DNA of 64,000 nt from a virus. Its lineage: Duplodnaviria; Heunggongvirae; Uroviricota; Caudoviricetes. This document shows positions 2,327 through 64,000 of this stretch, in pieces. The notes below the pieces were generated by a model. The model was given only the letters and a program-made list of their open reading frames with translations, was not told the origin of the DNA and did no database searches. Each line of letters starts with the position of its first letter. The stretch's first letter is position 1. The translations under genes were made by a program, and so were the position numbers. The stretch lies in IMG/VR virus record IMGVR_UViG_2721755710_000007, positions 1 to 64,000 of that record; one strand, written 5' to 3'.

Positions 2327-5300
2327 CTATATTTTTCCGCCTACGCCTTTAAACTTCTCAATAAACGAGACGATTTTCTGGAAAACTGCCTGTTTTTTCG
2401 TTTTATATTGCGGATTTAACGGACTAAGTTTTGGTAATGTTTCGTTTAATTCTGTGCCATTTTCGGTGGCATATTCGCGTTTTAAAGACGTGCGAATATA
2501 GCGTTTTGCTGCATCTTCATTGAGATTTTCTTCTTTTATCAATGCTTCTGCTTCACGTTGCTGTTCGCGTTGAGCAAACGTAAAGAATGCGTCAATGATG
2601 CTGGCTTTGTCCGGTAAATCATCCAGGTTCGTTTGCTGAATAAAATCGACCACCAGGCCCTCTTTAGCACGGTTCCCTAGGCTTGAACGAATTAAGCGTT
2701 TGACCTCTTCGATCATTTCGCCCTTGCCTTTATTTTGTCTGTTGTGTTCGAAAATCAGTCCAAGGATATAATCCAGGTTTATTTCCTGAGACTTCAGCAA
2801 ATCGACCTCAAAAACTACGTCATCCCAGTCAGTGGTTGATTTCTCTTTTTTCTCAGCTTCTTTCTCACGGCGCTGCCAGTCGCGAATATCGTTATAGGCA
2901 GAACGATAATCCTGAATCTTGCGATCAGCAGGGAGACGAATTGTTTGCAATTTAGCGAACTTTTCATCATCCACATAATGCTCTGCTTTGAATTTTTCTA
3001 CCGCAACAGGATCGCTAAGATCGATTTGTTGCAGGGCTTTTAGCGTGGCAAATTCATCATAGTTTTGCAGGATGTTCTCGGCACGCAGGTATTCGCCAAA
3101 CAGTTTAACGAAGTCTTTCTTCTCTTTTTCACTTTCAATACTGGTAGGGTCAGGGAACCGTTGTTCCAGTTCTGAAACTACTGTCATAAAGCCGCGTTTA
3201 GCTTCACCAGTAGCAGCATCAGTAAAGCCTTCCATATACTCTGTATAACTCTTTTCTAACACCACATTTTTGGTGTTTTTGTCACCAAACAGCGTTATGG
3301 CATCAATAGTTGAGCGTTCCAGATCCCGGAAAGTGACGATATTACCGAAGGTTTTAGTAGCGTCATAAATGCGGTTGGTGCGGGAAAATGCCTGCATCAG
3401 GCCGTGAAAACGCAAGTTTTTATCGACGAATAGCGTGTTCAATGTTGGAGCATCGAAGCCGGTTAAAAACATCCCCACGACGATTAACAAGTCAACATCC
3501 TGATTTTTAACCCGCTGAGCCAGGTCCCGATAGTAGTTCTGAAAACCCTTGCTATCAGTACTGAAATTCATTTGAAAATGGTCGTTATATTCACGAATTG
3601 CAGCATCCAGAAACTCTTTAGCACTGCTGTCCATTGCGCTGGTATCAAAAGTTTCATCGGAAATTTCACCAATGGCATTTTGTTCTTCATTAGCGGCAAA
3701 GGAGAAGATTGTCGCAACACGCAGCGGTTTATAGGTAGCCGATTTATTAGCGGCTTCTTCTTGTAACCGTTTAAACGTCGCATAATAGGCTTTCGCGGCA
3801 TCCACGCTGCTCACTGCCAGCATGGCATTAAAGCCTTTGGAGCCTGGGAAGGTACGGTGGGTTTTCTGGCGGAAGTTGTTCAGGATATATTGCGTGATTT
3901 CCTGAATACGCATGGGATGAAGAAACGCCTGCTGATTTTCAGCCGCACTCAGTTTTTTCTCGTCAGTTTCTGTCTCTAAAGACTTAAACTGTGGCCGCAC
4001 ATCGTTGTAGTCCACCTTGAATTTGAGCACTTTTTCGTCACGAATCGCATCGGTAATTACATACGAATGCAATTCACGACCAAATACGCTGGCGGTTGTT
4101 TCTGAGCCTAAGGCGTTTTCCGGGAAAATAGGGGTGCCGGTAAAACCAAACTGATAATAGCGTTTGAATTTCTTCTTCAGGTTTTTCTGCGCTTCTCCAA
4201 ACTGGCTGCGGTGGCATTCATCAAATATAAACACCACTTGCTGATTATATACAGGCAGGTCGCTTTCTGCTTTCATCAGATTATTGAGTTTCTGAATAGT
4301 AGTGACGATAATTTTGTTATCGTCCTTATCCAGATTTCGTTTAAGGCCTGCGGTATTTTCCGAGCCGTTGACGCTGTCTGGCGAAAAACGCTGATATTCC
4401 TTCATGGTCTGGTAATCGAGGTCTTTCCTGTCGACCACAAAGAAGACTTTATCAATAAAGTCCAGCTCTGTTGCCAGACGCGCGGCTTTAAAGCTGGTGA
4501 GGGTTTTACCAGAACCGGTAGTGTGCCAGATATACCCACCGCTTTCCGGTTTTGACCAGTTCTTCGCTGTAAAGGAACTCTTAATTTTCCACAGAATGCG
4601 CTCGGTGGCGGCAATCTGGTACGGTCGCATCACCAGTAGCGTCTGACTACTGTCAAAAACGCTGTAGTTCACCAGAACATTCAGCAGAGTATGTTTCTGG
4701 AAAAAGGTAGCGGTAAAGTCTTTGAGGTCTTTAATCAGCGTGTTGTCTGATTTCGCCCAATTCATGGTGAAGTCAAAACTGTTTTTATCGCGCTTTGTCG
4801 TGTTGGCAAAATAACGGGTATCGGTGCCGTTAGAAATGACAAACAGTTGCAGATACTTAAACAGGGAATTTTCGCTGTTAAAACTCTCTTTACTGTAACG
4901 ATGTATCTGGTTGAAAGCCTCACGAATCGCCACCCCGCGTTTTTTTAGTTCGATTTGCACCAGCGGTAAACCATTAACCAGGATCGTGACGTCATAACGA
5001 TTAGCATGAGAACCCGTCTGTTCAAACTGCTGGATAATCTGCACCTTATTGCGCATGAGATTCTTTTTATCTATCAAATAGATGTTCTCAAGTCGCTCGT
5101 CATCAAAAATAAAGTCGCAAATATAGTCGATATGGATTTTACGGGTCTTATCCAGAATGCCATCGCTCGGGTTGTCCAGATACTGCTCCGTGAAACGCCG
5201 CCACTCGCTGTCATTAAACACCACACCATTGAGGCTCTGAAGCTGTTGTCGAACATTGGCCAGCATCGCCGACTGAGATTTTACGGATATAAATTCATAG

Positions 5301-59058: not shown

Positions 59059-62000
59059 AAGAGCTGTGCTATGGATCTGTTTGCAGTGGAATTGAAGCCG
59101 CGAGTATTGCCTGGGAACCGTTGGGTATGCGTCCGGTTTGGTTTGCTGAAATCGAGCCTTTTCCATCGGCCGTTCTTGCGCTCCGCTGGCCCCATGTCGC
59201 CAACCTTGGCGACATGACAAAACTTGCCAAAAAAGTCTAGGCTGGGGAAATCGAATCCCCTGACGTGCTCGTCGGGGGAACACCATGTTTTACCGCGGGG
59301 CATATGGTTCTTTGTAAAAATGGTTATAAACCAATAGAAGATATTTGCCCTGGCGATTACGTAGTCAGTCATCTCGGGCGGTTACAACAAGTAAAAAGAG
59401 TTGGTTCAAAAATAGCTAATACGGGGTTACTTAATGCCGTTGGGCAGCCTTTAGGTATAAGAACAACCAATGACCATCCCTTCCTGGCGGTTCGGTGGAA
59501 AGCCCAAAACACCCGGAAAAATGGCACATATTTTAAGAGAGAGTTGTTGTCTGAACCGGAATGGCGAGCAGCATGTGATATGCCGGGATATCAATGGTGC
59601 GCTCTAACTAATTTCAATATTGCATCTCCAGATATTTGTTCTCGGTTCTTGTCTGAAGAACAGGCTATGTATCTTGCGGGCGCTTATGTTGGCGATGGAT
59701 ATATTAGGAGATGGAGAGGTAAATCTAAGAAGGCGGTTGTTTTTGGCATAAATTGCCAGAAATTGAGAAAGTTTCATTGCCGCATACCAGAAAACATATT
59801 TTCCGTGGCAAGCGAAATCCGAGGGAGCATCAAAGTAACCTTGAATGATACGTGTTATGCCAATTGGCTTAATGAACATTTTGGCGAGTTAAGCCATGCT
59901 AAGCGTATCCCTGCATGGGTGATGTCGCATCCATTGCGTCATGTGTTTTTACAAGGCTATCTTGATACTGATGGGACACCAAGTGGTAAAGCGGGATTTA
60001 GAATTAATAGTGTTAGTCCTGCGCTTGCTTGGGGCGTTGCGGGGTTGTCACAGACTTGTGGTTATGTTTCTTCGGTCAGCTTTATTGAAGTTGAGCCCAA
60101 AAAAGTGATCGAGGATCGCGTGGTAAATCAACGGAATTATTATCAGGTAACAATCTGCCCGCAGAAATTGTCACGTAAATCAAGATTGGCTCATGGAATG
60201 CTTTTACGAACAGTCAAAGAGTTTAAATCGGTAGGCCTAGATACTGTATACAACATAGAAGTCGAAGGTGATCATTCCTATATCCTCAATGGTGCGGTGG
60301 TCCATAACTGTCAGGCATTCAGTATCGCGGGATTACGTGGTGGGCTTGATGATGAGCGTGGCGCGCTAACTTTAAAGTATGTGGAGCTTGCAAATGCAAT
60401 TGACGACAAACGGGCTGAGTCATTTCTCAAACCAGCCGTTATCGTCTGGGAAAATGTCCCAGGAGTCTTGTCATCGGCAGATAACGCCTTCGGATGTTTC
60501 CTTGCCGGATTGGCTGGAGAAGATGCGCCATTTGAACCAGGTGATCGACCTGAATCAGGAAAAAGTAACGCGTTCTGGCGGTGGGATGGCAAAACCGGTT
60601 GCCATGCTCCAAAGTGGCCGCAGTGTGGTTGTATTTATGGGCCGCAGCGAAAGGTGGCCTGGAGAATCCTTGATGCCCAATACTTCGGAGTGGCACAACG
60701 ACGCCGACGCGTGTTTGTTGTCGCAAGTGCTCGAACAGACCTCGATCCCGCAACGGTACTTTTTGAGTTCGAAGGCGTGCGCCGGAATATTGCGCCGAGC
60801 CGAAAAAAGAAGGAAATCGCTTCCGCCATTACTGCAAATGGCGCTGCAATCAGTGGCGAAAGCCTAAATCCATGCCTACACGCTGGCATGTCCCCCGGTA
60901 TGAAATCGACGAAAGCCGTAAACGGTTTCAGGATGGCGGCATTTGGGGAATATATTGACGATGAAACCGCATCGACAGTAAAGGCAAGAGACTTTAAAGA
61001 TGCCACTGACCTTGCTGTTTTTAGCAGCACAGGAGCAGGTTTTTGGTCAGAAGGGCATGGTACATTGCGGGCTCGTGAGCAAGAAAGCCATGAGCATCTT
61101 GTTACATTGGCTTTTCCTGAGCGTATGAGCGGTACACAACATGCTGCAACTAAGAATACTTCACCATCTCTAATGGCTAAAAATCCAACAGCTGTTTGCT
61201 ATGAAGTAAGAAACGCAGAAGTAGCTGTCCGCCGTCTTACCCCTGTCGAATGTGAAAGGCTGCAAGGTTTTCCTGATGGGCATACGTTGATCCCGACGGA
61301 AAAGCGTAAAAAAGTTAATTCAGATGAACTGGCATATCTTCGCAATCACTATCCAGATTTAAGCGAAGAAGAGGCCGCGATGCTTGCAGCTGACGGACCG
61401 CGTTACAAAGCGATCGGCAATAGTATGGCAATACCAGTAATGCGCTGGATTGGCGATCGGATTACTAAGGCCGTATGTCGGCAGAAAGAAGGAAGTGAAA
61501 CAAAAGAGCGAAAAGTTAAACCAGCGGCAGAATTCGAACGGTCCATATTCAAATGGGCTGGTGGAAAATTTGGTGTTCTGGAACAAATCTTTCGCTATTT
61601 GCCAGAAGGGAAGCGCCTGATTGAACCTTTCGTCGGTGGTGGAGCTGTCTTCATGAATGCCGGATACCAGGAAAATCTGCTAAATGATGTGAATGCTGAC
61701 CTGATTAACTTTTACAAGACTCTGCAACGCGAGGCGCATTCACTTATCACTCTGGCTCATCGTTTCTTCTTGGACTACAACACCCAGGAGGGATTCCTGG
61801 CAGTACGGAATGCGTTTAACAAACAAGTCTATGATGATTTACATCGCGCAGCGGCGTTTTTGTTCCTGAACCGACATTGTTTTAACGGATTGACGCGTTA
61901 CAACCAGGCCGGTGAGTTCAATGTCGGTTATGGGAAGTATAAAACTCCGTATTTCCCATTACAGGAGATGGAAGCCTTCCTCGGTGCGGAAGGTCGTTCT

Positions 62001-62342
62001 GAGTTTGTATGTGGTGATTTTGCTGCGGTGATTGAAGCTGCCGGAGAAGGAGATGTCATTTTTTGCGATCCGCCATATGAACCGCTTCCAAATACAGAGG
62101 GATTCACGAACTATTCCGGTCATGACTTTAAGTTTGAAGAGCAACAACGCCTGGTGTCTCTGTTGACGGATGCTCATCGCCGAGGTGCAAAGGTTCTCAT
62201 TACTAACAGTGGCGCGCCAAACATCAGAGAGCTTTATCATGACAATGGTTTCAGAGTGGAACCTCTTTTTGCCAGACGTTCTGTGTCTTGTAAGGGGGAC
62301 ACTCGAGGTGTTGCTCATGACGTTTTAGGTATATTGCTCTAA
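59055..62342 (+). CDS. dmt: two-domain DNA methyltransferase Dmt (C5-cytosine N-terminal, Dam-like C-terminal), interrupted by an intein and an in-frame TAG
   Basis: C5 motif I ([10 protein letters not shown]), split PCQ motif (GGTPC / QAFSIAG), [15 protein letters not shown]; Dam motifs (KWAGGK, DPPY); GTG start overlapping the upstream stop. Confidence 0.75.
59286..60308 (+). other. intein with LAGLIDADG homing-endonuclease domain (341 aa) in dmt
   Basis: Starts [13 protein letters not shown] (block A), TNDHPF (block B), [11 protein letters not shown] and [11 protein letters not shown] (LAGLIDADG), ends ...[10 protein letters not shown], followed by extein Cys of PCQ. Confidence 0.75.
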
Positions 62343-62349
62343 TAAATTT
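62333..62349 (+). promoter_or_regulatory. C1 operator-like site
   Basis: attgctctaataaattt overlapping the dmt stop. Confidence 0.5.
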
Positions 62350-62526
62350 ATTAGTGTAATATCGCCTCAATGAATCGTGATTTATAGAGCGATTTAGCTG
62401 TTAGCCGCGACAGGCGCGGCGGCAAGTATGGCGGGGTAGTGACTCCTTCCCCATCATGACGCCGAGTTGCCAGGTTGACCATACGCCTAAGTGGCAACAC
62501 CGAAGTGCGTTACGAGCTTCCAGTTT

Positions 62527-62551
62527 GCCCATCTTCGGGTGGGCGTTTTTT
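62527..62551 (+). terminator. rho-independent terminator
   Basis: gcccatc-ttcg-ggtgggc hairpin followed by a T6 run. Confidence 0.6.
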
Positions 62552-63016
62552 CAGGGTTTTCGTCATGGTTAGCGACTTTGCGGCGGTTTAGAAACTGACC
62601 ATTAAAGTAAATGCAAACGATGATCTGATGATGGCAGCGGCCTAAGAAGCCTGATGCCACGGGGTATGAGTCGTCCCCCGTCAAAAAAATCGACCGCAGA
62701 GTGTCCCCGTCTGTGTATTAGGGAACGGGGAGGCACAACAGGTAAGGGCGCTGGTGTGATTAACCAGATGAACGAGAAGGGGCCATCTGTTGGTCAGCGT
62801 CCTTTCCTGTTGCGTCTTCTTTTCAGCGTAACAGCGGTGCTTAACAGCACTTTGGGTACAGTTCCACGAATTTACGGGTATATCCCGTCATGCTGAAAGC
62901 GCTAATCACGCTGGAAGCCAGGGTTATGCATCCCCTGTTACCGAATTGCAGCCAGGGCGCGGTGCGCCGAAAAGCATACGGAGGTGGAAGCCCTCGCCGG
63001 AGACGTACCCGGCAAG

Positions 63017-63089
63017 TGATGGTGTAGCTCAGCGGTTAGAGCGGTTGACTGTTAATCAACGGGTCGATGGTTCAAATCCATCCACCATC
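63017..63089 (+). tRNA. tRNA-Asn (anticodon GTT)
   Basis: Cloverleaf folded by hand: acceptor GATGGTG/CACCATC, anticodon loop CTGTTAA, T-arm GATGG-TTCAAAT-CCATC, then CCA. Confidence 0.85.
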
Positions 63090-63094
63090 GCCAA

Positions 63095-63167
63095 TGCCGG
63101 TTTAGCTCAGTTGGTAGAGCGCCTGCTTTGTAAGCAGGATGTCAGCGGTTCGAGTCCGTTAATCGGC
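63095..63167 (+). tRNA. tRNA-Thr (anticodon TGT)
   Basis: Acceptor GCCGGTT/AATCGGC, anticodon stem-loop CCTGC-TTTGTAA-GCAGG, T-loop TTCGAGT, then CCA. Confidence 0.85.
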
Positions 63168-63171
63168 ACCA

Positions 63172-63260
63172 GCACAACAGGTAAGGGTATTTTGCGACGT
63201 CGGAGATCGCCGAGCTTGGCAGAGGGTTCGAATCCCTACGAAGTACCCTTACCGTTGTGA
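63172..63260 (+). ncRNA. tRNA-like structured element, not a canonical cloverleaf
   Basis: T-arm-like GAGGGTTCGAATCCCTA enclosed by a 16-bp inverted repeat; no canonical acceptor/anticodon arms could be folded. Confidence 0.3.
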
Positions 63261-63902
63261 GGAAGTGCAGCTCTTTGAAGCAACCAGAAGATAAGCATCT
63301 GGCTTCACAACATAAACCGCAGGAACGACCAATAAACGGTAGTCCGTATGGAGAACACCCCGTTGAGGAAGAGGCCTGGCCGGAACCGTAACCGGCACTA
63401 CAACGTTGAGAACACTGGCGTAACGGGGTCATATCCCAATCTACGAATAAATGTTGCGTTGCAGCGTGACAACCAGTGTTCTCAACATTGTGGTGAATGC
63501 ACAGGCTGATGTGCCGCAACTACAGTAGTGCGCGCTTTGCGGGGCTTGCTACAACCCTGTGTCGGAGTTCAGCACCGACCATCACAGTTTGATTCTCTGG
63601 CATGAGCATAACGCTGAAATAAGTCCAGTCTGGTGCGGCCCGATCACCCGCCGTTAGCTCCACGAAACGGAGCACGTAACAGGTAAGAGCATTCTCCTGT
63701 AACGGGTTCATATCCCAATCTACAGGTCCACCAGGAATGCTCTTTCCGTTGCGGTGAATGCGGCTAAGCGCACGCGGAACAGTTAAAACAATCCTCCTTA
63801 ATGGTTAAACATTCCGGCGTTAATTGTTAACTGGTTAACGTCACCGGGAGGCACTCGGCACCGCAATCTAATAAATATGTCACTTTTATTGAGGGATAAC
63901 CA

Positions 63903-64000
63903 ATGTTCGGTAAATTGTTCGGCAAGAAAGTCGCTTCTGCAAAAGTAGAGCTGAAAAAAGTTGAGAATCGCGATCTGATGGAGGCCATCATCGGTGGCTG
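63903..64000 (+). CDS. partial ORF of unknown function running off the window
   Basis: ATG at 63903 with upstream purine-rich ribosome-binding site; only 32 codons visible. Confidence 0.3.
   Translation, partial: MFGKLFGKKVASAKVELKKVENRDLMEAIIGG

Follow-up and report, generated by a model that had tools for sequence, protein, structure and literature searches.

What follows the two tRNA genes in the leader of the ban operon? The window, the whole 64,000-nt stretch of DNA analysed here, belongs to a P1-like phage-plasmid, with 98% identity to P1 across 62340-63777. A sequence-only reading of it had pointed to a third, tRNA-like element behind tRNA-Asn and tRNA-Thr and to two short motifs that recur around it, and had suggested that these might be a tRNA of degenerate or unusual form, sites of RNA processing, or regulatory sites in several copies. 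The counterpart in P1 lies between the C1 operator/Pban and tciA-ban, and also holds trnA, trnT and a "dicF-like region". A literature search, outside the P1 genome paper, returned nothing on a tRNA leader of the ban operon and no S1/S2 core sequences (S1 and S2 are hairpins described below), and we found no published RNA end-mapping for this leader. The leader is an array, in which long plus-strand hairpins, HP1-4, alternate with genuine tRNAs and with cloverleaf-like units, here called KL units (Table 1).

Table 1. Features of the ban-operon leader, with positions in the window.
Feature	Position	Strand	Elements and remarks
ban-operon leader	62343-63902	+	C1-repressed, non-coding; dmt stop, tRNA-Asn, tRNA-Thr, tciA
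HP1	62734-62814	+	5' base CACAACAGGTAAGGGCGCTGG, 3' base CAGCGTCCTTTCCTGTTGCG; first copy of the 13-nt motif
Small hairpin, S1-like	62996-63013	+	GCCGGAGACGTACCCGGC; 4 nt 5' of tRNA-Asn; read from sequence
tRNA-Asn (GUU), genuine	63018-63093	+	ARAGORN; Rfam tRNA model 74.5 bits
tRNA-Thr (UGU), genuine	63096-63171	+	ARAGORN; Rfam tRNA model 72.3 bits
HP2a	63173-63259	+	~26-bp stem with one bulge; member of the covarying family
Uc, reduced KL-like unit	63254-63311	+	Closing helix GTTGTGAGG/CTTCACAAC; S1-like CCAGAAGATAAGCATCTGG; without variable arm
HP3	63396-63497	+	CACTACAACGTTGAGAACACTGG/CCAGTGTTCTCAACATTGTGGTG; anticodon-arm-like tip 63420-63444
25-nt repeat, copy 1	63420-63444	+	GTAACGGGGTCATATCCCAATCTAC; 3-bp GGG/CCC stem, 7-nt loop GUCAUAU
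Ua, complete KL unit	63487-63588	+	Closing helix ATTGTGGTG (63487-95)/CATCACAGT (63580-88); descriptor match
Ua, S2 hairpin	63499-63514	+	GCACAGGCTGATGTGC; 46-nt variable insert between S2 and S1
Ua, S1 hairpin	63561-63579	+	GTCGGAGTTCAGCACCGAC
Small hairpin	63657-63673	+	GCTCC-ACGAAAC-GGAGC; directly 5' of HP4; read from sequence
HP4	63675-63755	+	CGTAACAGGTAAGAGCATTC/GAATGCTCTTTCCGTTGCG; 13-nt motif, copy 3, with 2 mismatches; tip holds 25-nt repeat, copy 2 (63699-63723)
Ub, KL architecture, STnc100-like	63748-63867	+	Closing helix GTTGCGGTG/CACCGCAAT, GAAU, hairpins ending CCGGGAGGCACTCGG

The element GGTTCGAATCC is the T-arm-like tip of the long hairpin HP2a, which begins 2 nt past the CCA of tRNA-Thr. 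The motif is present as described, at 63225-63235 inside AGGGTTCGAATCCCT (63223-63237), and so is an enclosing inverted repeat, but the 16 bp given for the latter were too few: CACAACAGGTAAGGGTATTTTG (from 63173) pairs with CGAAGTACCCTTACC-GTTGTG (to 63259) over about 26 pairs with one bulged A, giving a fold of -42.6 kcal/mol (z = -5.2 against shuffles). The tip is made up of an S1-like hairpin, UCGGAGAUCGCCGA, and of the T-arm-like hairpin AGGGTTCGAATCCCT, which abuts the 3' strand of the long stem. AGGGTTCGAATCCCT has the G-C-closed stem and the 7-nt loop UUCRANY of a tRNA T-arm, with an outermost (fifth) pair that would be a G.A mismatch, and within HP2a it alone has counterparts among the tRNAs of other phages (identity at 20 of 21 nt, E ~4); outside the P1-like phages, searches with the HP2a interior gave generic T-arms only. 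In place of a 7-bp acceptor stem with discriminator and CCA, a D-arm and an anticodon arm, HP2a has the ~26-bp stem, no CCA and no anticodon arm, and just a 4-bp hairpin and 8 unpaired nt separate its 5' strand from the T-arm. ARAGORN called tRNA-Asn and tRNA-Thr and no third tRNA. With membership in RF00005 taken as a gathering score of 29 bits or a call by a tRNA finder, cmscan at E<=10 over 62300-64000 gave no match of the tRNA model on 63173-63259, 63396-63497, 63487-63588 or 63675-63755. A normal third tRNA is thus not called by either method, and the suggestion of a degenerate or unusual one is not borne out.

It is hardly credible, therefore, that HP2a is a real but unusual tRNA, and equally so that the region codes for the minus-strand proteins Plp and Upl. 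P1 records do carry plp and upl on the minus strand across 63142-63711, but the plp frame overlaps tRNA-Thr in antisense, neither gene has a match to a Pfam family, and both are absent from newer P1 annotations. Instead of a conserved intact frame there are indels of 46-196 nt that break these frames in relatives (P7, D6, SJ46, OP279344). An odd "tRNA-Ser" was once called in the ban leader of D6 by tRNAscan-based annotation, but the tRNA-Ser of D6 and P7 is a separate genuine cloverleaf, inserted elsewhere in the leader.

All three observations hold, apart from slight shifts in position, and the two recurring motifs turned out to be parts of the long hairpins. The 13-nt motif CACAACAGGTAAG is the 5' basal strand in three of the four related hairpins HP1-4. 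Of its three reported copies, those at 62734 and 63173 are exact, but the one at 63675 (CGTAACAGGTAAG) has 2 mismatches; a further match with 2 mismatches, at 62802 on the minus strand, is the 3' arm of HP1. Its bare count is marginal (4 matches against 1.18 expected, with 4 of 100 shuffles reaching 4). The 20-mer GGG(G/T)TCATATCCCAATCTAC is exact at 63425 and 63704, where the expected count is 0.00 and none of 100 shuffles reaches 2, and the repeat really spans 25 nt (63420-63444 and 63699-63723, 96% identical). We credit HP1-4 and the tRNA-like modules as real on the grounds of structure and covariation, not of repeat counts. The folds of HP1-4 have z scores from -4.4 to -5.6. HP1 (-48.8 kcal/mol, z = -5.4) is included in the covarying hairpin alignment, and its orthologues in D6 and SJ46 show compensatory changes. 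HP3, inverted repeat I1 with 23-nt arms that are 91% complementary (-49.2 kcal/mol, z = -5.6), is kept in the phage-collection record CMS-2020a, whose tRNA array differs (Asn-Tyr-Thr) and which has no alignment to P1-like loci outside the shared modules. HP4 (z = -4.4) is again a member of the covarying family. The outer helices of all four run to about 17-26 bp (roughly 20-27 pairs, with few interruptions, in the folds) and have a conserved bulge or mismatch 4-6 bp above the base, and they offer, on the transcribed strand, the dsRNA helix of ~20 bp or longer that is expected of an RNase III substrate. Rfam, searched at gathering scores and at E<=10, gave only spurious microRNA-precursor matches on the long hairpins. 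Of the smaller hairpins, one like GCCGGAGACGTACCCGGC is also found 5' of tRNA-Asn or tRNA-Arg in many related loci, and the one ahead of HP4 has a covarying stem and a constant loop (GCCAC-ACGAAAC-GTGGC in locus L103).

The 25-nt repeat is an anticodon-arm-like tip (GGG-NUCAUAU-CCC) common to HP3 and HP4, and not a second T-arm. In the first copy the loop follows the pattern U33-CAU-A37, and there is an asymmetric AC/AAUC internal loop. The module recurs with the loops GUCAUAU, UUCAUAU, CUCAUAA and CCCAUAA on closing stems that covary, and in one locus (L095) the apical GGGCUCAUAACCC is identical to the anticodon arm of a phage tRNA-Met. It is not a copy of the anticodon arm of the P1 tRNA-Ile2; the P1 trnI arm is GGCGACUCAUAAUCGC, not GGG/CCC.

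Each long hairpin leads straight into a KL unit. Such a unit is closed by a helix of GGUG/CACC type and contains a variable insert as well as two hairpins, S2 and S1, whose loops are complementary. The closing helix, which has at least 7 bp and may reach ~20 bp, is followed by a 3-nt linker, and the 5-bp 3' hairpin (S1) is joined to it without a spacer. In Ua the two complementary loops are GCUGA (S2) and UCAGC (S1), and the minimum-free-energy fold has the multibranch shape of the structural descriptor, which also gives chance matches, e.g. two on the minus strand of the window. Ua is no more stable than its shuffles (z = -0.65), so that its support is comparative. Uc folds with a 9-bp closing helix (z = -2.05) and was assigned by inspection of the sequence, on weaker evidence than Ua. 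Ub makes up the 5' UTR of the TerB-like gene tciA (ATG at 63903) and is ~80-85% identical to sequence upstream of dicB in lambdoid phages, in mEp460 directly upstream. Hairpin and KL unit overlap: the last 6-9 nt of the hairpin 3' arm are at the same time the 5' strand of the next closing helix, at all three junctions (63254-63262, 63487-63495 and 63748-63756), and since the same nucleotides are used, only one of the two, hairpin base or closing helix, can be complete at a time. The long outer helix that ends at the 5' end of a KL unit has a median of 17 bp and at least 14 pairs in 64% of contexts, against a median of 7 bp and 15-19% in controls. The CUGAUG motif had brought a hammerhead ribozyme to mind, but inspection speaks against it: the positions that follow CUGA are variable and covary like the strands of a stem, nothing stands between S1 and the closing helix where GAAA belongs, and the Rfam hammerhead models gave no match. 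The earlier proposal of processing sites or repeated regulatory sites leads in the right direction, in so far as these are repeated structured RNA signals that may serve in processing, but it had caught fragments only, and had missed the KL units and their spread outside P1.

The comparative evidence is as follows. In the hairpin alignment (n=23), 10 of the 16 predicted consensus pairs show compensatory double changes. Among 90 distinct KL units, 94.7% of the cells are paired, against 81.6% in shuffled and 30-47% in slid controls, percentages that are inflated by a parser which required pairing; both partners change in 19 of 24 pairs, none of 500 shuffles attains the observed values, and the covariation counts, like the following check, are independent of that filter. 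Of 87 genome loci retrieved by nothing but a 21-mer of one hairpin, 61 proved to have the other hairpin too, along with a closing helix whose sequence is unrelated. At the loop-loop pair, 74 units have G-C, 10 have G.U, 5 have A-U and 1 has another combination, and at least 93% of the units pair in those closing-helix columns that overlap the hairpin 3' arm. The wobble pairs of the long hairpins and KL units fit plus-strand RNA only. For one hairpin pair, for instance, 13 sequences have U.G, 6 have C-G and 2 have U-A, and on the opposite strand this would become a C.A mismatch. Integron attC-like DNA hairpins, which the AAC...GTT bases and bulged bases had suggested, were rejected because the U.G wobbles can belong only to RNA of the plus strand.

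Neither a normal third tRNA nor an absence of the repeats from relatives, the two outcomes that would have refuted the earlier reading, was observed; the repeats recur in related elements, and well beyond P1. Many prophages from E. coli, Pseudomonas and relatives of these bacteria have the modules. We found related copies in Gamma- and Betaproteobacteria, among them 1784 of 5426 complete E. coli genomes, and the architecture recurs in Pseudomonas, Achromobacter and Comamonas. In the one prophage examined (E. coli JJ1886), a hairpin and KL unit are situated in the early-operon leader, where they separate the repressor gene from the early genes and stand immediately 5' of a DicF-like sRNA, an RNA that needs a defined 5' end and that has a terminator. 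The association with tRNAs is close. Related arrays hold tRNAs with the anticodons CAU, UGU, GUU, UGA, UCU and GUA; array tRNAs begin a few nt past the S1/closing-helix tail, and hairpins within tRNA arrays begin 1-2 nt after the CCA. A hairpin starts within a few nt of the tRNA 3' end (0-6 nt allowed) in 19 of 103 distinct tRNA contexts. Parts of tRNAs are also found within the modules: both the hairpin tips and the KL inserts repeatedly contain orphan T-arm-like hairpins, 21 of 86 hairpins have a T-arm-like or anticodon-arm-like module, and one KL insert (L209) has a complete D-arm and T-arm. Among the relatives of P1 the units come and go. A deletion in SJ46 runs between both 25-nt repeats, the presence of the HP2a and HP2b units varies, a tRNA-Ser cassette has been exchanged into the leader, and deletions in SJ46 and Ro157c2YLVW break HP3/HP4 or remove the anticodon-arm-like tip. 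A CRISPRi knock-down over trnT-plp-upl-tci-trnI-ban did not reduce the plating of P1 (PMC10695390), and from this and the tolerated deletions we conclude that the modules are dispensable in the laboratory.

The reading we prefer, with a probability of roughly 45%, is that the modules are tRNA-mimicking punctuation that directs the processing and stabilisation of co-transcribed tRNAs, sRNAs and mRNAs. They would act at the RNA level. RNase III would cut the long helices (about 17-26 bp), which are close to or longer than the ~20 bp that the E. coli enzyme needs. The tRNA-like folds, i.e. the elbow-like kissing hairpins, the T-arm-like loops and the 5-bp S1 stem stacked on the closing helix, would engage host RNase P, RNase E, RNase Z/BN and exonucleases. 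These cuts could split a single early transcript into mature tRNAs, DicF-like small RNAs and capped-off, stabilised mRNAs (tciABC, ban), and the sequence similarity of the modules might also provide recombination points for the gain and loss of cassettes. RNase P uses a constant 12-bp "acceptor + T-stem" ruler on tRNA; there is no such constant ruler here, since the closing helix varies in length and some T-arm-like hairpins stand off from the long stem. A more tentative proposal makes hairpin and KL unit together a new class of phage RNA, widespread and without an entry in Rfam 15, which would imitate tRNA parts to recruit or distract the host tRNA machinery. The parts imitated may be the elbow, the T-arm and an initiator-like anticodon arm, and the use may be either a counterpart, in bacterial viruses, of tRNA punctuation that frees sRNAs, tRNAs and mRNAs from early transcripts, or a decoy against tRNA-targeting immunity.

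As putative tRNA-mimicking decoys, or sponges, the T-arm-like, anticodon-arm-like (CAU) and elbow-like modules would be made early in infection or induction and would titrate host factors that act on tRNA. Candidate targets are defence- or toxin-system anticodon nucleases (VapC, which cuts initiator tRNA, PrrC, colicin E5/D-type) and tRNA-modifying enzymes (TrmA, TruB). The modules would also complement the phage replacement tRNAs from the same array. We regard this as unlikely. The tRNA parts are copied faithfully (a perfect T-loop consensus with G-C closing pair, the tRNA-Met arm, the insert with D-arm and T-arm), the modules are co-located with phage tRNAs in repressor-controlled early operons that are also home to accessory genes and DicF-like sRNAs, and dispensability in a standard laboratory host is usual for anti-defence functions. 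The most conserved parts (S1, S2 and the closing helix), however, resemble no single tRNA arm, many hairpins and KL units are without any T-arm-like or anticodon-arm-like module, and the CAUAU/CAUAA loop is known in four sequence variants only. If true, it would mean an RNA-based layer of phage counter-defence.

Still less probable, in our view, is a cis-acting folding switch, in which the choice between hairpin base and closing helix sets the amount of transcription or translation that gets across the tRNAs and the DicF-like terminator and so into tciABC and ban, either by co-transcriptional choice of fold or by binding of RNA polymerase as in the put RNA of HK022. The mutually exclusive pairings at all three junctions of the window and the conserved pairing of the shared closing-helix columns speak for such a switch, the modules stand just 3' of repressor-controlled early promoters and around intrinsic terminators, and Ub is immediately in front of tciA. 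The overlap could, on the other hand, merely reflect coaxial stacking of adjacent helices, the sequence suggests no ligand or factor, and several units may share one leader, some directly before tRNAs or sRNAs, which need no translation. A put-like antiterminator was rejected: in the complete genome of HK022, the phage that defines put, the KL descriptor has no match, whichever strand is scanned. A last alternative is that the modules are functionless, decayed tRNA genes and recombination scars, the arms and inverted repeats being left by cassette shuffling at short repeats. It has in its favour that the gain and loss of cassettes in relatives falls exactly at repeats, that the T-arm of HP2a is so close to real phage T-arms, and that the region is non-essential (PMC10695390), but compensatory and wobble changes preserve the helices across very different sequences, and the same architecture extends from a third of the complete E. 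coli genomes to Pseudomonas, Achromobacter and Comamonas. With pairing and 21-nt identities kept across such hosts, we find neutral relics very improbable.

If punctuation is indeed the function, the modules amount to a portable RNA "connector" common to temperate phages of hosts that range from E. coli to Pseudomonas. With it, tRNAs, sRNAs (DicF-like, RprA-like) and accessory genes could be joined in a single early transcript under repressor control and still be released as discrete, stable products. This would account for the ends of DicF-type sRNAs, for the ease with which phages swap tRNA cassettes and for the purpose of long "empty" leaders such as that of P1 ban. In about one third of the complete E. 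coli genomes the modules are unannotated, i.e. left blank or mis-annotated as small ORFs (plp, upl).

The long-hairpin and KL modules match no Rfam family, and Ub is just below the threshold of STnc100; KL-bearing loci unrelated to this one, eight in number, had no match to any Rfam family either. STnc100, or PasD, is a prophage-borne sRNA family without known function (PMC12370729). Ub reaches 43.0 bits against its model (RF02076; gathering score 47, E = 1.5e-7) over model positions 31-147 of 206, while Ua and the KL units of the eight other loci have no match at E<=1. Like Ub, STnc100 has a GGUG...CACC closing helix followed by GAAU, a hairpin on the 5' side, a middle part that varies and, flush with the closing helix, a 3' hairpin of CCGG type. 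Ub also shares with it the prophage intergenic location upstream of a dicB/terB-type gene (tciA here, and dicB for the homologous sequence of mEp460). With the KL units in general it shares the layout and an identical start, GGUGAAUGC, but the complementary loops GCUGA/UCAGC of the KL units are not seen in the STnc100-like Ub, and the long hairpins fall outside the matched region of the model.

Plant mitochondrial t-elements (PMC1920247), which direct the formation of mRNA ends, and viral tRNA-like processing signals are analogous in function: they imitate parts of tRNAs without being tRNAs, and tRNA-processing enzymes create the ends of mRNAs or small RNAs at these co-transcribed boundaries. 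The order is comparable to that of our modules (module, then tRNA, sRNA or ORF), but the sequences are unrelated, and the end-forming role is experimental for t-elements and inferred for the bacterial phage operons here. Between the early genes of T7, RNase III hairpins of ~20 bp that are repeated, mutually similar and interrupted by an internal loop or bulge separate the functional RNAs of one early transcript. HP1-4 resemble them in their 17-26-bp outer helices with a bulge or mismatch near the base, processing being a prediction in our case; the T7 sites are without tRNA-like tips and have no sequence similarity to HP1-4. YrlA (RF02553) is like HP2a in having a long stem formed from both ends of the RNA and a tRNA-like domain with a canonical T-arm. 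The long stem of YrlA replaces the anticodon stem; that of HP2a has the acceptor position, with the T-arm abutting it. The sole match of the YrlA model spans the two true tRNAs (25.9 bits against 69), with none on HP2a, and no rsr or rtcB genes were seen in the 61000-64000 stretch examined. None of the modules is accepted as a tRNA by model or caller. KL units differ from the tRNA in an S1 loop of 8-10 nt that is no T-loop, in a closing helix of 7-20 bp and in the lack of a 3' CCA, but they share with it a four-way cloverleaf in which the loops of the 5' and 3' hairpins pair like D- and T-loops, and the likeness extends to hairpin tips with canonical T-arm sequences, to the look-alike of a CAU anticodon arm and to the arrays that the modules share with tRNAs.

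The long hairpins of the ban-operon leader (HP1-HP4) and the cloverleaf-like modules that accompany them (KL units) are conserved plus-strand RNA, modular, associated with tRNAs and sRNAs, and located in the leaders of early operons. The sequence-only reading had described, downstream of the genes for tRNA-Asn and tRNA-Thr, a third tRNA-like element inside an inverted repeat, together with two recurring short motifs. The T-arm-like GGTTCGAATCC is indeed present (63225-63235), within the ~26-pair hairpin HP2a; the tRNA calls of ARAGORN are limited to Asn and Thr, with no third tRNA, and the Rfam tRNA model does not match this hairpin even at E<=10. The 13-mer at the 5' base of HP1, HP2a and HP4 recurs as claimed, with two exact copies and one with two mismatches, a bare count that is only marginal, and the 20-mer repeat is clearly non-random and in fact 25 nt long (63420-63444 and 63699-63723).

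Structured modules in the ban-operon leader of the window
Feature	Positions	Strand	Description
HP1	62734-62814	+	long hairpin, fold compared with shuffles
HP2a	63173-63259	+	long hairpin, fold compared with shuffles
HP3	63396-63497	+	long hairpin, fold compared with shuffles
HP4	63675-63755	+	long hairpin, fold compared with shuffles
Uc	63254-63311	+	reduced KL copy: 9-bp closing helix and S1-like hairpin
Ua	63487-63588	+	complete KL unit; minimum-free-energy fold is the expected multibranch shape
Ub	63748-63867	+	KL layout; sub-threshold Rfam STnc100 match

The four hairpins fold far more stably than shuffled sequence (z = -4.4 to -5.6). HP1, HP2a and HP4 have a common 5' base, (C)ACAACAGGTAAG, and 3' base, CTTWCC(T)GTTGYG, and HP3 has a related version of it (CAACGTTGAG...CTCAACATTG). 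Relatives hold additional hairpins on the same base with wholly different upper stems and tips: HP2b in P7 and Ro157c2YLVW, HP2a and HP2b in tandem in OP279344, one downstream of tRNA-Ser in D6/P7, and others in CMS-2020a and Cyrano. With 23 hairpins aligned, RNAalifold retains 16 basal pairs in the consensus, 10 of them with compensatory double changes. One basal pair is U.G in 13 hairpins, C-G in 6 and U-A in 2. Read from the opposite strand, U.G becomes a mismatched C.A, which places the helix in plus-strand RNA and not in the DNA or in a minus-strand transcript. A small hairpin at 63657-63673 (+) lies directly 5' of hairpins of the CAACAGGYAAG type in the window and in three comparison loci (L103, L091 and L006); its 7-nt loop, ACGAAAC, is invariant and its stem covaries (GCUCC/GGAGC in the window, GCCAC/GUGGC in L103).

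Short repeats 3' of the hairpins (GGTGAATGC...) led to the second module, the KL unit. Exact-pattern scans of IMG/VR gave at least 120 loci each for its 5' hairpin S2 (GRTGAATGCRCAGRCTGATG) and its 3' hairpin S1 (CCGGAGATCAGYACCGG), and in many contigs among the matches listed the two lie on the same strand, 50-200 nt apart. The unit begins with one strand of a closing helix, usually ...GUGGUG, and then has GAAU, whose G closes this helix while AAU serves as a 3-nt linker. Next come S2 (GCGCA-GGCUGA-UGCGC), a variable insert of 30-200 nt, S1 (GCCGG-AGAUCAGCA-CCGGC) and, with no gap, the matching 3' strand of the helix (CACCAC...). The S1 loop UCAGC is complementary to the S2 loop GCUGA. Pairs were counted on this structure in 90 distinct units, aligned after NNNN had been substituted for the insert: 94.7% of cells are paired, against 81.6% in shuffles and 30-47% with partners slid by 1-3 columns. 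The percentage is partly built in, because the parser admitted only units that pair in S1, in S2 and in five of the six pairs of the closing helix; this does not hold for the diversity of pair types. Both sides have changed in 19 of 24 pairs, and none of 500 shuffles attains any of the values observed. Covariation extends to all nine pairs of the closing helix (in one column pair G-C occurs 39 times, U-A 39, A-U 4 and C-G 2), and the sole variable position of the loop-loop helix is G-C in 74 units, G.U in 10, A-U in 5 and otherwise in one.

The fold energy of Ua is unremarkable (z = -0.65), so the support for it is comparative. Ub scores 43 bits against the STnc100 gathering score of 47, and is 80-85% identical to sequence just upstream of dicB in lambdoid phages; STnc100 is a prophage sRNA related to PasD, with a function described as unclear. 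Family-wide, a long outer helix ending a few nucleotides from the 5' end of the KL unit has a median of 17 pairs and reaches at least 14 in 64% of contexts, compared with a median of 7 and 15% at 400 nt further upstream, and 7 and 19% in shuffled sequence. The final 6-9 nt of the hairpin 3' arm double as the 5' strand of the next closing helix (63254-63262, 63487-63495 and 63748-63756), and the hairpin base and the closing helix therefore compete or stack. At some Pseudomonas loci the hairpin-forming sequence instead makes a closing helix of ~20 bp around S2 and S1, which suggests that hairpins and KL units are variations on one theme.

The window is a P1-like phage-plasmid; positions 62340-63777 are 98% identical to phage P1, and Rfam hits in other parts of it are a hok/sok element and the P1 C4 antisense RNA, together with its a1/b1 targets. 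In the record of the P1 reference, dmt ends ahead of the bivalent C1 operator and the pair of ban promoters; next come a 'dicF-like region', trnA (Asn), trnT (Thr), the small minus-strand ORFs plp and upl, and tciA-tciB-tciC-trnI-ban. This order places the modules within the repressor-controlled untranslated leader of the ban operon, ~1.56 kb between the stop codon of dmt (62342) and the ATG of tciA (63903). The ~120 nt preceding tciA (63778-63900) and the first tciA codons (MFGKLFGK...) are of the P7/D6/OP279344 type and not of the P1-reference type, and the mosaic junction falls inside Ub. In dmt (59265-62342, +) an intein-like insertion interrupts the C5-methylase motif, and between the C5 and N6 methylase domains Pfam places Hint_2 (aa 7-56), LAGLIDADG_3 (aa 228-291) and Intein_splicing; Dmt of the P1 reference is ~270 aa shorter, and OP279344 and Ro157c2YLVW have long versions. 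Just 5' of DicF (62413-62550, +) lies a conserved structured element common to lambdoid phages, pseudoknot-like, in which a GUAUGG/CCAUAC helix is interleaved with GUUGCCA/UGGCAAC; the latter differs in phage mEp460 by a compensatory change (GUUGUCA/UGACAAC). 3' of the element come the hairpin called 'dicF-like' in P1 and an intrinsic terminator (GCCCATCTTCGGGTGGGCG TTTTTT); the Rfam DicF model gives no hit there.

Outside P1, an independent scan of one genome per species with a 21-mer of S1 alone gave 87 loci, of which 61 have S2 with its GCUGA loop and a closing helix of locus-specific sequence. These are mostly Gamma- and Betaproteobacteria (Escherichia relatives, Pantoea, Pectobacterium, Pseudomonas, Halomonas, Xanthomonadales, and also Achromobacter, Comamonas, Acidovorax, Variovorax and Paraburkholderia); the loci without the rest of the unit come largely from actinobacteria and resemble matches by chance or in coding sequence. 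One stretch with hairpin, KL unit and sRNA is found at least partially in 1784 of 5426 complete E. coli genomes, and for the most part in 436; almost all the matches listed have no annotation beneath them, and eight KL loci unrelated to one another gave no Rfam family at E<=1. A prophage of E. coli JJ1886 has 720 non-coding nt that separate its repressor gene from the early genes yfdP-yfdR; the hairpin and KL unit lie here, with a DicF-like sRNA and terminator directly 3', and then another long hairpin, with an anticodon-arm-like tip. The sequence trailing tRNA-Ile2 in P1 (TTTGGTTGTAACACGGCGTCTGGCACATGCGTCGTTAGCGGTCTGGTGACG, L001 3836-3880, after trnI) recurs with no tRNA where the early leader of the JJ1886 prophage starts (L281 4826-4880), and is another leader module common to P1 and lambdoid/CPS-53-like prophages. 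At other loci the KL unit stands ahead of a tRNA, a terminator-ended small RNA or an ORF, in the last case with a ribosome-binding site 20-35 nt downstream. One contig (L109 2944-3046) has an RprA-like small RNA and terminator ~350 nt downstream of its KL unit, at 46.9 bits against a gathering score of 70.

Parts of tRNAs recur throughout. The 25-nt repeat forms an apical hairpin, RAC-GGG-NNCAUAW-CCC-AAUC, with loops GUCAUAU, UUCAUAU, CUCAUAA or CCCAUAA and covarying closing stems, and thus looks like an anticodon arm, not a second T-arm; its form in the E. coli prophage, GGGCUCAUAACCC, has exactly the sequence of the anticodon arm in a tRNA-Met(CAU) gene of locus L095. Comparison of the arms rejected a copy of P1's own trnI arm. 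Hairpin tips and KL inserts repeatedly contain T-arm-like hairpins that belong to no called tRNA (a 4-5-bp, G-C closed stem with loop UUCRANN); in the tips, HP2a among them, they usually adjoin the long helix at its 3' strand. In one IMG/VR contig (L209, ~3985-4090) the insert is a complete canonical D-arm (TGTAGCTCAGTTGGTAGAGC), variable loop and T-arm (CGGGTTCAAGTCCCG), without anticodon arm or acceptor stem, effectively a tRNA 'elbow' mounted in a KL frame. Beside another KL unit (L147 715-773) a tRNA-like sequence has a CAU anticodon loop and a T-arm without a D-arm, and scores 28.1 bits with the tRNA model (cut-off 29). The real tRNAs of these arrays have anticodons CAU, UGU, GUU, UGA, UCU and GUA; they begin a few nucleotides after the S1/closing-helix tail, and a hairpin follows 1-2 nt after their CCA.

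We infer that the modules are punctuation for RNA processing. E. coli RNase III takes helices of ~20 bp, such helices lie between functional RNAs in the T7 early transcript, and RNase P, RNase Z/BN and the CCA-adding enzyme recognise the tRNA elbow, T-arm and acceptor/T stack. The ~20-bp helices between functional RNAs would be of RNase III substrate size, as in T7, the tRNA-like parts could be recognised by the tRNA enzymes, downstream sRNAs such as DicF require processed 5' ends, and a folded unit remaining at the new 5' end may protect the mRNA. In plant mitochondria tRNA-like 't-elements' serve in exactly such a role (PMC1920247). The resemblance of the modules to one another would also account for the cassette-like differences among P1 relatives, which are HP2a/HP2b gain or loss, tRNA-Tyr and tRNA-Ser insertions, and a deletion between the 25-nt repeats in Salmonella phage SJ46. 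In the latter (L008, ~2585-2600) all between the repeats is gone, and the resulting fusion of HP3 (5' half) with HP4 (3' half) can no longer make the long stem; in Ro157c2YLVW only the GGGTTCATATCC tip of HP4 is missing. These natural 'mutants' show that the modules are dispensable and recombine with one another.

Against processing stand the tolerated natural deletions, the lack of a constant 12-bp ruler of the RNase P kind in the modules, and the unchanged plating of P1 under CRISPRi across trnT-plp-upl-tciABC-trnI-ban (PMC10695390). The modules could otherwise be decoys made of tRNA parts, a read-through switch built on the competing helices, or neutral relics. An odd tRNA is effectively excluded, and so are Plp and Upl proteins, since both ORFs lack any Pfam signal, are broken by large indels in P7, D6, SJ46 and OP279344 and are omitted from a newer P1 annotation, and plp is antisense to tRNA-Thr. 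In the window plp and upl (63142-63711, -) run antisense to the structured RNAs and tRNA-Thr; they are probably not genes, and plus-strand leader RNA could be the source of the 'upl' signal for which a P1vir RNA-seq paper reports up-regulation in a dksA host.

No family in Rfam 15 covers the long hairpins or the KL unit, and a search of the accessible papers for their core sequences found none that has them; there is a real chance that these modules are a distinct RNA class. The KL unit is like a tRNA cloverleaf in its closing helix of at least 7 bp, its 3-nt linker and its 5-bp S1 stem joined without spacer, and its loop-loop pairing stands in place of the contact between D-loop and T-loop, but unlike in tRNA the length of the closing helix ranges from 7 to ~20 bp and S1 has no T-loop. 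The nearest curated relative, for Ub only, is STnc100, and we file the modules with two known kinds, the tRNA-like structures and the prophage RNAs of the STnc100 type.
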